Positions 3,505-6,239 of a DNA stretch of 64,000 nucleotides are shown here, piece after piece. The position numbers and the translations under genes are program-made. Under the pieces are notes generated by a model. The model had not been told where the DNA came from and ran no database searches. It saw only the letters and a program-made list of their open reading frames with translations. The DNA is taken from assembly GCA_023137185.1 (NCBI GenBank), contig JAGLPS010000002.1:47458-111457 (forward strand). Reading direction: 5' to 3'. The stretch is from Minisyncoccota bacterium (GTDB lineage Bacteria; Patescibacteriota; Minisyncoccia; Phycocordibacterales; JAGLPS01). Numbering within the stretch: the first letter of the stretch is position 1; the number at the start of each line of letters is the position of its first letter.

Positions 3505-3790
3505 AGCTCACTCGCATTCTCTTTTGAAAAGCACACATAAAACGTTGCTACGTTTTTGCTCTGCTCGCGCCGTCGCGCTGCGCAAGGCTTTTCAAAAGAG
3601 AATACTCGCTCTAAAGGGCAGAAACAGAACTTTTGAAAAGCACGAAAATTTTCTGCTAAAAATTTTCTCTGTACAGCGCCAGTCGCGCTTCCCAAGGCTT
3701 TTTAAAAACAACAGCTCACTCAAAGGGGAGAAAACTCAAGCACAACTATTCGCATTTTCTTTTGAAAAGCGCGCGTACCCTTTCCACTGA
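3505..3790. repeat. Imperfect ~110-bp tandem repeat holding 5 copies of the palindromic motif CTTTTSAAAAG in alternating orientation
   Basis: CTTTTGAAAAG / CTTTTCAAAAG at ~3519, 3590, 3632, 3699 and 3758; units GCGCCNGTCGCGCT..CAAGGCTTTT.AAAA repeat at 3565-3600 and 3680-3720. Confidence 0.6.
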
Positions 3791-3796
3791 CAACGT

Positions 3797-3858
3797 TAGT
3801 ATTACACCACACTTGGAGGTTGAACCTCCAAGTTGACCTCCAAGTTGATTTTCAAGTA
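3797..3858 (+). other. Structured element TTACACCACA + hairpin CTTGGAGG..CCTCCAAG + tandem CCTCCAAGTTGA (copy 1; a second copy at 61803-61872)
   Basis: Direct reading; similar architecture recurs upstream of ORF 62048 and, more weakly, at 62950-62985 upstream of prfB. Confidence 0.4.
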
Positions 3859-3947
3859 TGGTTTTCAGAACTATTTTAGAGAGTGAGGAAAATTATCAAC
3901 GTAAAGTTTTTTTGTATCTTTTTTGGAAAAGAGTTAGTATAAAAAAT

Positions 3948-4199
3948 ATGTATAAAGGGGTAGAATTTTATGAAGAGGGCAATTCCATTTCCAATCTGAA
4001 ACGAAGACCGAAGCGTTTCTCTTTCATAACTGGTCTTGCTATCAAATTAGGTCTTGCGAAAGACGAACAGAGCGCTAACGTAGTGCTTGTTATTGTGGCT
4101 GTTGCGGCGATTCTTCTTACGATTGTAATTTTAACTACAAGCGCGAACAAAAAGATACCTCTGCCGAATCCTGAACAGATGCTTCCTGCTGAATTTTAA
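3948..4199 (+). CDS. Small membrane protein (cytoplasmic N-terminus, GLAKDEQSAN motif, one TM helix); paralog of 4797-5048
   Basis: The ATG at 3948 matches the start of its paralog; shared IKLGLAKDEQSAN + hydrophobic helix; ends 4 nt before the pilin gene. Confidence 0.45.
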   Translation: MYKGVEFYEEGNSISNLKRRPKRFSFITGLAIKLGLAKDEQSANVVLVIVAVAAILLTIVILTTSANKKIPLPNPEQMLPAEF

Positions 4200-4203
4200 T
4201 TTT

Positions 4204-4776
4204 ATGGAAAAAAACCGAGGATTCACCCCGTTAGTAGAAGAAGGTCTCGTGCCCAAAGCATTTTCACAGAAAACACCTTTTTCTATTTTTAATATGTTCA
4301 TTTCAAAATTCTCCTCAACCAACATAGGGCACAAAAATGCTAGACCGTCTTTCACTACGGGGTTCACACTCATTGAACTGCTTGTTGTTATCTCGATTAT
4401 CGCTTTCGTAGCCTCTATAGTTATGAGCAACCTAAATCTTGCGCGTAGGCGCGCAAACATTGCAAAAGCAAAATCAGAAGTGCGTACTCTTCTTCAGGTA
4501 ATTTTACGATATCAAATTGACAATAACAGCTGGCCAAGTCCGAGTAACATTGCTTCATTGGACGATTGGAATGCGTCCTGGAGCGATCCGTATATTAGCG
4601 CTATTTCTACTGATCCATGGGGGCAAAGTTACTTTTTTGACGGAGGGGCAAGCGAATGCGGATGGGGAAATACAGGTATTTGCTCAGGTGGTCCAAATAA
4701 GTCAATAGGCTCGTTCAACAATCCAAATATGCCTCTTGGTGACGATATTTGTATTCCAATGGACATATGTAAATAA
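4204..4776 (+). CDS. Type IV pilin-like protein with an unusually long (~53 aa) conserved leader before G|FTLIELLVV
   Basis: Class III signal motif TTGFTLIELLVVISIIA; Cys-rich C-terminus; the 5' ~190 nt are nearly identical to 5045-5235. Confidence 0.6.
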   Translation: MEKNRGFTPLVEEGLVPKAFSQKTPFSIFNMFISKFSSTNIGHKNARPSFTTGFTLIELLVVISIIAFVASIVMSNLNLARRRANIAKAKSEVRTLLQVILRYQIDNNSWPSPSNIASLDDWNASWSDPYISAISTDPWGQSYFFDGGASECGWGNTGICSGGPNKSIGSFNNPNMPLGDDICIPMDICK

Positions 4777-4796
4777 TAAATTAACGTAATTTTTGT

Positions 4797-5048
4797 ATGA
4801 GTGTAGTTCAATTTTTAGATGAAAATGAATTTGATTCAAGGTTAAAAAATTGTCCGAAGAAATATTCAGGACTTGTGAATCTTGTAATACGAATTGGTCT
4901 CGCGAAAGACGAGCAGAGTGCTAATAAGTTACTTCTTTTAATTACTGTTGTTCTCTTTGCACTATCAATTTTTGTTCTCTTTTCTTTTAATCAATCGCCA
5001 GAGCCGTTATCTCCGCAGGAAATACAGTCTTTTCAAGTAATACCATGA
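4797..5048 (+). CDS. Small membrane protein, paralog of 3948-4199
   Basis: IRIGLAKDEQSANKLLLLITVVLFALSIFVLF; its stop overlaps the start of the next pilin gene (ATGA). Confidence 0.45.
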   Translation: MSVVQFLDENEFDSRLKNCPKKYSGLVNLVIRIGLAKDEQSANKLLLLITVVLFALSIFVLFSFNQSPEPLSPQEIQSFQVIP

Positions 5049-5692
5049 AGAAAAACCGAGGATTCACCCCGTTAGTAGAAAAAGGTCTCGTGCCCAAAGC
5101 ATTTTCACAGAAAACACCTTTTTCTATTTTTAATATGTTCATTTCAAAATTCTCCTCAACCAACATAGGGCACAAAAATGCTAGACCGTCTTTCACTACG
5201 GGGTTCACACTCATTGAACTGCTTGTTGTTATCTCAATAATTGGCCTTTTGTCTTCTGTTGTTCTCACGAGTCTTAATACGGCGCGTCTAAAAGCAAAAG
5301 ACGGGCGCAGACTGTCCGATATGAAGCAAATTCGGATGGCCCTTGAGCTTTATCGCGACGCAAACGACCGATACCCAAGCCCGACTTCAGGTGATGGCGA
5401 TTGGGAGGAGAGTTATGAAGATGGGGGACAATTTATAGAAACTCTCGCGAATAACGGATATCTGCCGAATCCAATTGTTGACCCAATAAACAACACGTCG
5501 TATCGGTACTCGTATTATCGCTATGGCGCAGGGTCTTCTGGTTGTCCTTCTTCCCGCGGGAATTTTTACGTTATTGGCGTTAGAAATATGGAAACAACCG
5601 GCAATCCCCATCCCGCAAGTCCAGGGTGGTCGTGTCCAACTAGAAATTGGCAAGGTGAGTTTGAATGGGTGGCAGGAGCTTTTGAGCACTAA
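5045..5692 (+). CDS. Type IV pilin / GspG-like pseudopilin with the same long conserved leader
   Basis: MKKNRGFTPLVEKGLVPKAF...RPSFTTGFTLIELLVVISIIGLL; the mature part ARLKAKDGRRLSDMKQIRMALELYRDANDRYP is GspG-like. Confidence 0.6.
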   Translation: MKKNRGFTPLVEKGLVPKAFSQKTPFSIFNMFISKFSSTNIGHKNARPSFTTGFTLIELLVVISIIGLLSSVVLTSLNTARLKAKDGRRLSDMKQIRMALELYRDANDRYPSPTSGDGDWEESYEDGGQFIETLANNGYLPNPIVDPINNTSYRYSYYRYGAGSSGCPSSRGNFYVIGVRNMETTGNPHPASPGWSCPTRNWQGEFEWVAGAFEH

Positions 5693-5733
5693 CAAATTCT
5701 TTTTTTGGATTAACCCATTAGTAGAATTTCAAT

Positions 5734-6009
5734 TTGATTATGTTTTATGTCTATGTGTTAAGAAGCGAGAAGAATCGCGAGTTGTATATTGGGTATACTT
5801 CCAATTTAAAAAACAGATTGCAAGAACATAATCAGGGGTTAAATCTTTCCACAAAGCGATATGTACCTTGGAGACTAATTTATTATGAAGCCTCTATTGA
5901 GGAAAAGGATGCCGTACGCCGTGAAAAGTATCTTAAAACTACTCAAGGCGGGAGATTGCTAAGAAGGAGATTGAAAGAGTTTCTGTACAAAAATCCTCCG
6001 GAGATTTAA
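5734..6009 (+). CDS. Small GIY-YIG nuclease-domain protein (UPF0213-like)
   Basis: YVYVLRSEKNRELYIGYTSNLKNRLQEHN is the GIY-YIG motif; ~90 aa standalone. Confidence 0.7.
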   Translation: MIMFYVYVLRSEKNRELYIGYTSNLKNRLQEHNQGLNLSTKRYVPWRLIYYEASIEEKDAVRREKYLKTTQGGRLLRRRLKEFLYKNPPEI

Positions 6010-6036
6010 CAAACTGAAATCTCACTACGGGGTTGA

Positions 6037-6131
6037 CCCTGTAGTGAGATTTGGCATAGCACTCTGAGTGCGCCCAGCCTTAGTTTGCCAAAGCAAACTA
6101 AGGCTGGGCAATGCCAAATTCTACTACGGGG
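6037..6131. mobile_element. MITE-like nested-hairpin element (TIR CCCTGTAGTGAGATTTGGCAT / ATGCCAAATTCTACTACGGGG) with an inner 16-bp perfect hairpin
   Basis: ~21-bp terminal inverted repeats; inner CCCAGCCTTAGTTTGC-CAAA-GCAAACTAAGGCTGGG (6073-6108); an extra half-site TCTCACTACGGGG at 6020-6032; family members at 13170-13299 and 40453-40519. Confidence 0.55.
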
Positions 6132-6239
6132 TTGACTATTCTTTTGCTTATCTATATTATGGTGGGTACGCATTTTTGCGCATTTTTTGTAATTGAAAAA
6201 ACGTATGCGCGCGCTTTTTCTTTTTCTCATTTTTAACTA

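Follow-up and report, generated by a model that had tools for sequence, protein, structure and literature searches.

Small inverted-repeat elements, one with a GIY-YIG nuclease gene, and a pilin cassette in the variable spacer between rplB and rpsS of a Paceibacteria-type bacterium

Introduction

Among the small repetitive elements of bacteria, the Rickettsia palindromic elements (RPE) are palindromic selfish sequences of 100-150 bp that occur in frame in protein genes and are translated without destroying the protein, and the Correia elements of Neisseria are small elements with terminal inverted repeats (TIRs) and short target-site duplications (TSDs) that lie upstream of genes, where their ends create sigma-70 promoters (PMC10969869). 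In this work, we have analyzed a 64-kb stretch of a Minisyncoccota contig (JAGLPS010000002.1; hereafter the window), in which 2735 nt separate rplB (ribosomal protein L2, 2662-3504; Pfam Ribosomal_L2_N, E 4.5e-30, and Ribosomal_L2_C, E 8.7e-49) from rpsS (S19, 6240-6599; Pfam Ribosomal_S19, E 3.6e-33), both on the + strand. These genes form the upstream and downstream borders of an island that contains two pairs of membrane-protein and pilin genes together with several members of one family of small inverted-repeat elements, one of which encodes a GIY-YIG nuclease.

Homing endonucleases, too, are selfish and spread into conserved genes, and the single-strand transposition of HUH enzymes, as in IS200/IS605 and in repetitive extragenic palindromic (REP) sequences moved by REP-associated tyrosine transposases (RAYTs), leaves no target duplication. 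Comparison of the island with such systems and with related genomes makes it probable that we are dealing with a variable spacer typical of the lineage, which holds a recurrent pilin cassette and is overlaid by a family of mini-transposons. This family accounts for three separate oddities that a first-pass annotation had listed for the same DNA, namely a pilin with a long leader, a standalone nuclease gene and a nested hairpin. Every part named there has been found at its proposed position or a few bases from it, and mobile DNA, in the form of mini-elements with TIRs and TSDs, is indeed present within the island.

A Nuclease Gene Enclosed by Inverted Repeats

The supposedly standalone GIY-YIG gene is actually enclosed by the same inverted repeats as the element found in the pilin leaders (see below). 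The resulting unit of 320 nt (5713-6032, + strand) begins with ACCCATTAGTAGAATTT and ends with AAATCTCACTACGGGG, and its sole gene is an open reading frame (ORF) for 89 aa (5740-6009; the TTG start proposed earlier at 5734 lies two codons upstream), the product of which matches PF01541 at E 3.7e-18 and 66 bits (cut-off 22.6). The residues that mark the catalytic domain, Y3, Y5, Y16, G18, R26, H30, N31 and E62, are invariant in 20 GIY-YIG homologues, and the closest solved structure is that of the UPF0213 protein BH0048 (1ZG2, E 0.0024). The ends of the family consist of TIRs of ~20 bp, written as N4-GTAGTAGAA ... TTCACTAC-N4 or in the flipped form, to which a 4-bp TSD is added, and the two ends, which are distinct from each other, are found either way round with respect to the GIY-YIG ORF.

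The same architecture has been found far beyond the window. In two of the comparison loci (L085 and L093) and in 80 metagenome loci, the ORF is bracketed by CC(C/G)GTAGTAGAATTTTGA...ATG and TAA...TCAAAATTTCACTAC(G/A)GG. With ends set 4 nt outside GTAG/CTAC, an exact 4-nt direct repeat (TGGA, TGAA, TATG, ATGA, also TACG, AAAA and TGTG) surrounds 29 of 58 distinct copies, which is a lower bound, since about six copies of the flipped form were mis-bounded; the mean flank repeat amounts to 2.93 nt vs 1.78 +/- 0.15 in 2000 permutations of the flanks. The right junction holds an ATG in 48 of the 58 copies, 44 of which open a real gene, and on the left-hand side 33 of 45 ATGs open a mini-ORF of 2-8 codons that stops 1-20 nt before the ATG of the nuclease. 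From these junctions and mini-ORFs it follows that a start codon is the typical site of an element and is duplicated by it, in an arrangement suited to translational coupling. Between homologues from different groups of Patescibacteria the GIY-YIG proteins are 70-80% identical, which exceeds the RplB identity between the same groups (50-68%) and suggests that they have spread horizontally. Two such elements within 1-1.5 kb of each other have been seen in L142 (1373 and 2535) and in L124-L126 (484 and 1702), where the second belongs to a divergent subfamily (44% identity) with ends of its own, CATCCCGTTAGAG...CGGGATG, and an ATGCA duplication.

The gene-bearing unit, which agrees with the ORF-less copies in its ends and in the length of its TSD, is their candidate autonomous partner, and the GIY-YIG protein may be the enzyme that mobilises both. 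At somewhat less than even odds, the 320-nt unit would be an autonomous transposon that has a minimal GIY-YIG nuclease as its only protein and persists, together with miniature transposable elements bearing inverted repeats (MITEs), through harmless landing sites. Such sites would be start codons, in which the ATG is rebuilt and translation is coupled, -35 boxes, in which TTGAC is rebuilt, and the prepilin cleavage motif, in which the insert is trimmed away. Several points weigh against this proposal. The copy in the window has imperfect flanks (ATTA/TTGA) and, unlike most, does not lie at a start codon; we know of no precedent for an 89-aa GIY-YIG domain as a transposase; and the ORF could be cargo of elements that are moved by an enzyme encoded elsewhere.

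A mover of the latter kind could be an HUH tyrosine (Y1/RAYT) transposase, in which case the elements would be REP/REPIN-like or IS200/IS605-like and the GIY-YIG ORF a passenger. The ends do carry GTAG beside a palindrome, like REPs, and RAYT-like genes lie close to the elements in L104 (130-834; NF047646, E 2.6e-12, below cut-off), beside pilD and three genes from two insert-bearing pilins, and in L183 (1702-2340), just upstream of a GIY-YIG element. However, the window holds no Y1 homologue (tblastn E > 2), only two are present in ~180 loci, and a 4-bp TSD is the rule in these elements. The duplications, together with the missing gene, place the family outside REP/REPIN-RAYT and IS200/IS605; on both grounds we have rejected a RAYT/Y1 transposase as the mover and hold the passenger reading to be quite improbable. 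The L104 contig itself (ENA ERZ27254845 k141_2840532) opens with an Illumina adapter at 1-45 (..ACACTCTTTCCCTACACGACGCTCTTCCGATCT).

In the searchable literature (GIY-YIG combined with CPR, MITE, TIR/TSD and REP, and MITEs of Patescibacteria; subscription journals were outside the scope), we have found no description of these GIY-YIG/MITE elements, and phage and plasmid collections returned distant GIY-YIG homologues only (36-44%). On plasmid AZO_p3 of Azospirillum lipoferum 4B (255118-256115, L187), a homologue stands between the normally adjacent sufB and sufC and is bracketed on both sides by REP-like palindrome doublets (CGTCATCCCCGCGAAGGCGGGGATCCAG; 36 nt, 97% complementary across the gene). 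A homologue in Aeromonas caviae (L188) is similarly flanked, the identities of the two being 39-44% and the inverted palindromes measuring 28-36 nt. These proteobacterial palindromes hint that the partnership of nuclease and repeat may be widespread.

Elements in Pilin Leaders

Three ORF-less elements of 137 nt, all on the + strand, are found in pilin genes of the window. Copy 1 (4226-4362) lies in frame in the first island pilin (pilin1) between TSDs TTCA at 4222-4225 and 4363-4366, copy 2 (5067-5203, TSD TTCA) occupies the same site in the second (pilin2), and copy 3 (48193-48329, TSD TTTA; ~92% identical) has entered in frame at GFT/LVE of an unrelated minor pilin (48153-48875) of the type IV pilus (T4P) locus. 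A 16-mer from the hairpin region recurs in both island pilins and at 48319, within the minor pilin beside pilD. Alignment of the three genes shows ~92% identity from GG-TT-AC/CCCCGTTAGTAG to CACTACGGGG/TT-AC and no similarity upstream.

In both island pilins, the insertion splits the prepilin cleavage motif, with GFT on one side and LIE on the other. The leader of pilin1 comprises 53 residues as encoded (G-1 is residue 53) and is longer than the short basic leader of about 5-30 aa of type IV pilins; without the 141 nt, the protein starts with MEKNRG/FTLIELLVV, a 6-residue leader as in L018, L036 and the major pilin of the window. The alignment, the TSDs and the insert-free pilins thus turn the reported long-leader pilin into a canonical short-leader pilin that carries an in-frame transposable element. 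As the insertion rebuilds G-F-T at the right end of the element, an intact cleavage site follows the insert, and cleavage by prepilin peptidase should take off the leader together with the 47 extra residues and leave a normal mature pilin.

A profile of the 50-aa insert peptide, run against 1.84 billion (1.84e9) proteins, gave ten matches, of which five are real; all of these are pilins, two encoded in the window and three (P0124, P0125 and P0129) in other metagenomes, and each carries the insert at the same motif. A word-indexed protein search with the same peptide returned no match, the window's own proteins included, which reflects a limitation of the index. In L104, where the T4P locus is syntenic, the element is found in the second and third minor pilins and is missing from the first, whereas the window shows the reverse. 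Orthologous minor pilins are thus occupied in one genome and empty in the other, an insertion polymorphism that affects different genes at a single conserved motif.

The 137-nt element forms a long stem (fold z = -4.6). Over 7 copies from four organisms, 96.6% of the cells in a 26-bp stem are paired and 6 pairs have changed on both sides, a value that 0 of 500 shuffles reach and that falls to 37-47% in slid registers; the reading frame is open in 7 of 7 copies. One may hence ask whether the inverted repeats are functional RNA structures, that is, stems that stabilise mRNA or control translation, and whether the 47-residue segment is a selected leader extension. The compensatory changes, a tolerance of G-U on the + strand, fold z-scores of -4.6 and -8.8, the open frames, and the mini-ORFs ahead of the GIY-YIG ATG, which suggest translational coupling, would all fit. 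The reading is nevertheless unlikely in view of the locus-specific 4-bp direct repeats around the elements, the ORF-less copies in intergenic DNA, the two orientations of the ends relative to the ORF, the empty orthologous sites, and the presence of the same element in non-homologous pilin genes. A role in RNA could be secondary to the nature of the elements as transposable DNA.

Two further observations count against transposition as the full account of the pilin copies. The near-identity of pilin1 and pilin2 at their 5' ends reaches past the element, so that copy 2 may stem from gene conversion, and the 47-aa peptide is partly conserved, which leaves room for a role at the protein level. If the transposable-element reading is followed, the class of long-leader pilins is explained by an element lodged in a protein segment that is cut off by the cell. 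Gene callers and pilin classifiers will misread genes with such inserts, and assemblies break there.

MITEs Without Open Reading Frames and Local Promoters

In total, 6 ORF-less copies are spread over unrelated sites of the 64 kb, and empty orthologous sites exist. They have the properties of MITEs, with 67-137 nt, TIRs of ~20 nt and no ORF of their own, and are flanked by a TSD of fixed length (4 bp). In the window it reads TTCA (twice), TTTA, TTGA and TGAA; L101 and L104 both have TTTA.

The hairpin at 6037-6131, which the first-pass annotation had described as nested and MITE-like, is such an element. Its 95 nt bear the shared TIRs in flipped form around a perfect internal 17-bp hairpin (6072-6109), and it is inserted in TTGA (TSD 6033-6036 and 6132-6135), next to where the GIY-YIG unit ends on the right. 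Sister copies have been identified at 13169-13300 and 40453-40519 and in L005 and L011. The first of these (132 nt) is positioned exactly at the start codon of secY with TSD TGAA, and its left ATG opens a 32-codon ORF; the empty site in L057, ATGAAAGA, contrasts with A-TGAA-(132 nt)-TGAA-AGAG in the window. The L057 rplO-secY site reads ctatATGAAAGAT, and it is likewise empty in L038, L041, L040 and L021.

The second copy (67 nt, 40453-40519) is followed by TTGATA-18-TATAAT, its right end forming a promoter-like -35 box. A comparable arrangement is found next to rpsS, where the best sigma-70-like match within 2400-6700 (6132-6160, + strand; TTGACT-17-TATTAT, 10/12 positions) has a -35 box composed of the duplicated target TTGA and the right end of the 95-nt element; the same geometry recurs at 40453-40519 and in L032 and L005. 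The 95-nt MITE would in this way rebuild a TTGAC -35 box and provide rpsS and the downstream genes with a promoter of their own, for which 6132-6160 is the candidate. It weighs against this assignment that promoter scans as a whole yield about as many hits as shuffled sequence (10 hits vs 7.7 +/- 2.5). No convincing terminator is predicted on the + strand of the island, so transcription may enter from upstream as well as start at a local promoter. In the closest relative (L005, 8375-8490), a 30-nt hairpin of 'solo ends' and a GGCAT-type MITE precede a TTGACA promoter-like site and rpsS, an arrangement that mirrors window 6017-6160. The ORF at 6111-6236 (..STTGLTILLLIYIMVG..), with left flank GGATTAAC, has been considered as the remnant of a third pilin gene that the GIY-YIG element had entered. 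This idea is not supported, as the end of the element itself encodes STTG and the remainder consists of T-rich DNA of the putative promoter.

The Membrane Protein and Pilin Cassette

The cassette begins with a gene for an 83-aa bitopic membrane protein, in which the motif GLAKDEQSAN precedes a single transmembrane (TM) helix (TM1, 3948-4199), and continues with a GspG/PilA-like type IV pilin (pilin1, 4204-4776; PF07963, PF08334 (T2SSG) and TIGR02532). Paralogues of both follow on the same + strand, TM2 (4797-5048; 83 aa, single TM, 41% identity) and pilin2 (5045-5692; N_methyl and T2SSG, 49% identity overall). The stop of TM1 lies 4 nt ahead of the pilin1 start and that of TM2 overlaps the pilin2 start (ATGA), the membrane protein being translationally coupled to the pilin; the two-gene cassette is tandemly duplicated. 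The first 250 nt of the two pilin genes are 88% identical, whereas the proteins diverge otherwise; judged by sequence, TM1/pilin1 and TM2/pilin2 are old paralogous pairs. Both pilins contain the motif G/F-T-L-I-E with Glu5 and ~20 hydrophobic residues, and at residues 52-74 of each they reach 23.2 and 22.6 bits for PF07963 (cut-off 21.2) and 24.5 and 26.5 for TIGR02532 (cut-off 16.3).

No Pfam or NCBIfam family has been found for TM1 and TM2, and a protein search with TM1 returned itself only. A hidden Markov model built locally from both gave weak matches in two loci only, L018 and L036. There, as in the window, each TM homologue is located immediately upstream of a pilin gene and coupled to it, with 4 nt between the two genes or with overlapping ends, and shares the motif ..KL(G/S)(L/G)AKD(E/Q)xxA(N/E) followed by a TM helix. 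The pairs stand between rplE and rpsN of the ribosomal string, on the same strand and without a nuclease. It weighs against a recurrent cassette that the homology is weak (E 0.002-0.01, small database) and lies mainly in position and motif.

Recurrence in the ribosomal operon at another junction favours the view that the cassette rides on ribosomal transcription over that of a one-off accident. Since it is oriented as the ribosomal genes are and no convincing terminator precedes it, the cassette is probably co-transcribed with them. The earlier suggestion of a filament system co-transcribed with ribosomal proteins is plausible in that the arrangement recurs in relatives; the transcription itself we infer. 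Complete T4P machinery for such a filament is encoded at ~41-52 kb of the window, with PilD (PF06750, PF01478), PilB and PilT (T2SSE) and PilC (T2SSF) at ~41-48 kb. The stretch 45329-48156 (+ strand) comprises pilC, the gene of the major pilin (46795-47277), which has a short leader and lacks the insert, and the prepilin peptidase gene pilD (47311-48156). The island pilins would be processed and assembled by these PilD, PilB and PilC proteins.

A Variable Junction in the S10 Gene String

The host is a Paceibacteria-type bacterium of the candidate phyla radiation (CPR), the RplB of which is 60-68% identical to that of metagenome-assembled genomes (MAGs) of Zambryskibacteria, Nomurabacteria and Taylorbacteria. 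The whole region is contained, without a difference, in an independent scaffold from ENA (L001), and the NCBI MAG contig (L002) is identical through window 4381 and breaks directly past the repeated element in pilin1; the same RplB protein is encoded on the ENA and NCBI contigs. The agreement between L001 and L002 shows that the region is neither a chimera nor an assembly artefact. Two short contigs from sister samples terminate within the first hairpin past rplB.

Accessory, non-ribosomal DNA thus lies inside the S10 gene string, as had been noted before. The remaining string is canonical (rpsJ-rplC-rplD-rplW-rplB...rpsS-rplV-rpsC-rplP-rpmC-rpsQ-rplN-rplX-rplE-rpsN-rpsH-rplF-rplR), and in comparison with the canonical S10-spc operon, the gene order of which is the same, the window is interrupted at rplB-rpsS (2735 nt), rplE-rpsN (626 nt) and rplO-secY (the 132-nt MITE). 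For a survey of the first junction, 80 RplB-bearing loci have been retrieved and rpsS has then been located in each. The statement that rplB and rpsS are adjacent in essentially all bacteria holds in general, with gaps of -22 to 183 nt in ~40 non-CPR loci, but fails in this clade. Across the 29 closest CPR (Paceibacteria) relatives that show both genes, the gap can be as small as 6 nt or as large as 5314 nt, with 250 nt or more in 21 of them, and the operon is broken there in four more (L010, L011, L019 and L027), where rpsS does not occur within 7 kb downstream of rplB.

Synteny with related CPR genomes, proposed earlier as a check on the insertion, is mostly lost at this point, and the cargo is unrelated between genomes. 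It includes DgkA, OMP decarboxylase, an aminotransferase, a 1439-aa Big_7 surface protein, a MazF toxin and SAICAR synthetase, the last encoded on the opposite strand, and several cargo genes are oppositely oriented. The junction is a break point of the S10 gene string in this Paceibacteria lineage, one that tolerates foreign DNA of genome-specific content, and rplE-rpsN is a second, weaker hot spot of the S10-spc string. A DgkA-like gene is the last gene before rpsS in L006, L009, L016, L028, L032 and L037 (PF01219 at E ~1e-30 in L009, L016 and L028, which were scanned; the other three were judged by a shared sequence motif), which suggests an older arrangement rplB-(variable)-dgkA-rpsS in part of the clade.

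The first-pass annotation had interpreted the whole 2.7 kb as a single mobile or recombinogenic module of pilin, partner and nuclease that was inserted into a once-contiguous rplB-rpsS pair. The position of the nuclease gene and repeats at the 3' end and of further repeats at the 5' end would agree with this, as would the finding that, among the loci surveyed, the exact island occurs solely in this organism. The repeats at the two ends are, however, mutually unrelated, and no flanking direct (att) repeats bound the island; inspection of ORFs and Pfam matches within it revealed no integrase or recombinase gene. With a GC content of 0.402 vs 0.401 in the window, and GC at third codon positions (GC3) likewise equal to the surroundings, a shift in composition is absent too, so that the whole has none of the three hallmarks of a genomic island or integrative element (integrase, att repeats, composition shift). 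Moreover, the junction is already open in most relatives and is filled with other cargo there, the cassette occurs without the nuclease in L018 and L036, and the nuclease has TIRs and a TSD of its own and stands alone in ~58 other contexts. We consider the single-module interpretation very unlikely and prefer the variable spacer with its recurrent cassette and overlaid mini-transposons. A large CPR lineage thus shows routine breakage, at one junction, of the most conserved bacterial gene string, and this bears on the use of ribosomal-protein synteny in binning and phylogenomics.

Further Features of the Window

Directly downstream of rplB, a repeat array (3505-3790) is composed of ~2.4 palindromic units of ~110 nt with direct and inverted repeats. 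The 12-mer CTTTTGAAAAGC occurs 4 times in the 64 kb, each time in this array; a perfect 17-bp inverted repeat (3516-3532/3587-3603) delimits the first unit (3516-3603), which is flanked on both sides by ACTCGC. The array folds into two long hairpins (RNA fold z = -4.1), its 17-mer is not present in any other locus compared, and Rfam 15 covariance models applied to 3400-6300 gave nothing at the gathering threshold and only matches at chance level (E > 1). A second family of small repeats, its copies now decayed, probably makes up the array. An ORF at 3341-3790 (149 aa), which overlaps the end of rplB, belongs to no family and lies within the repeats, and has therefore been treated as non-coding. 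Between the array and the first cassette, a 9-bp hairpin (3812-3832), a 12-nt tandem direct repeat (3824-3847) and a promoter-like site (3833-3862, TTGACC-18-TATGGT) follow on the + strand, the last a weak match with 9/12 consensus positions.

The rplE-rpsN gap of the window (9974-10596) consists of 626 nt of non-coding DNA with a hairpin at ~9996-10021 and, at ~10043-10073, a stem that resembles a terminator and leads into a run of T; in relatives, the same junction contains the TM and pilin cassette (L018 and L036) or 1.9 kb (L009). Elsewhere in the window, a tmRNA gene (22049-22470, - strand; Rfam RF00023, 110.8 bits) and seven tRNA genes have been found.

Comparison with Known Systems

The compact element family links a minimal GIY-YIG nuclease to MITE-like repeats with precise targeting of start codons. 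If the proposal of an autonomous GIY-YIG transposon is true, it would constitute a class of prokaryotic insertion sequences outside the current catalogue (DDE, DEDD, HUH, serine and tyrosine), and a mobilising nuclease of this kind would mean a new transposition chemistry in a very small, programmable-looking insertion system. If the nuclease is not the mobiliser, the family still provides a clear case, in nature, of selfish DNA that selects neutral landing sites.

Among the systems described so far, RPEs resemble the 137-nt element in that both are in frame and translated. The two are unrelated in sequence, and RPEs are distributed over many unrelated genes, whereas one subfamily is confined here to type IV pilins. 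It is found always at the G-F-T/L-I-E motif, the extra peptide should be lost with the leader, and a candidate autonomous partner exists. Correia elements differ by a TA duplication and the lack of a known cognate gene; in the present family the TSD has 4 bp, many copies coincide exactly with start codons, and the duplicated TTGA together with the next base restores the -35 box. The likeness to REPIN-RAYT systems lies in a single small nuclease-type gene within palindromic repeats that are also scattered as non-autonomous copies, and in the GTAG of the ends. The enclosed gene here is, however, of the GIY-YIG and not of the HUH-Y1 type, TSDs are present, and the gene-bearing unit is found at different loci across genomes. 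With the GIY-YIG homing endonucleases (I-TevI, Seg) and the UPF0213/YhbQ proteins, finally, the nuclease shares the catalytic domain PF01541. It scores 19.5 for TIGR01453 (cut-off 56) and thus falls outside the homing endonucleases, from which it differs as a protein of 89 aa with a single domain, without a DNA-binding domain and located outside any intron or intein, and by its TIRs and TSDs, which homing does not produce.

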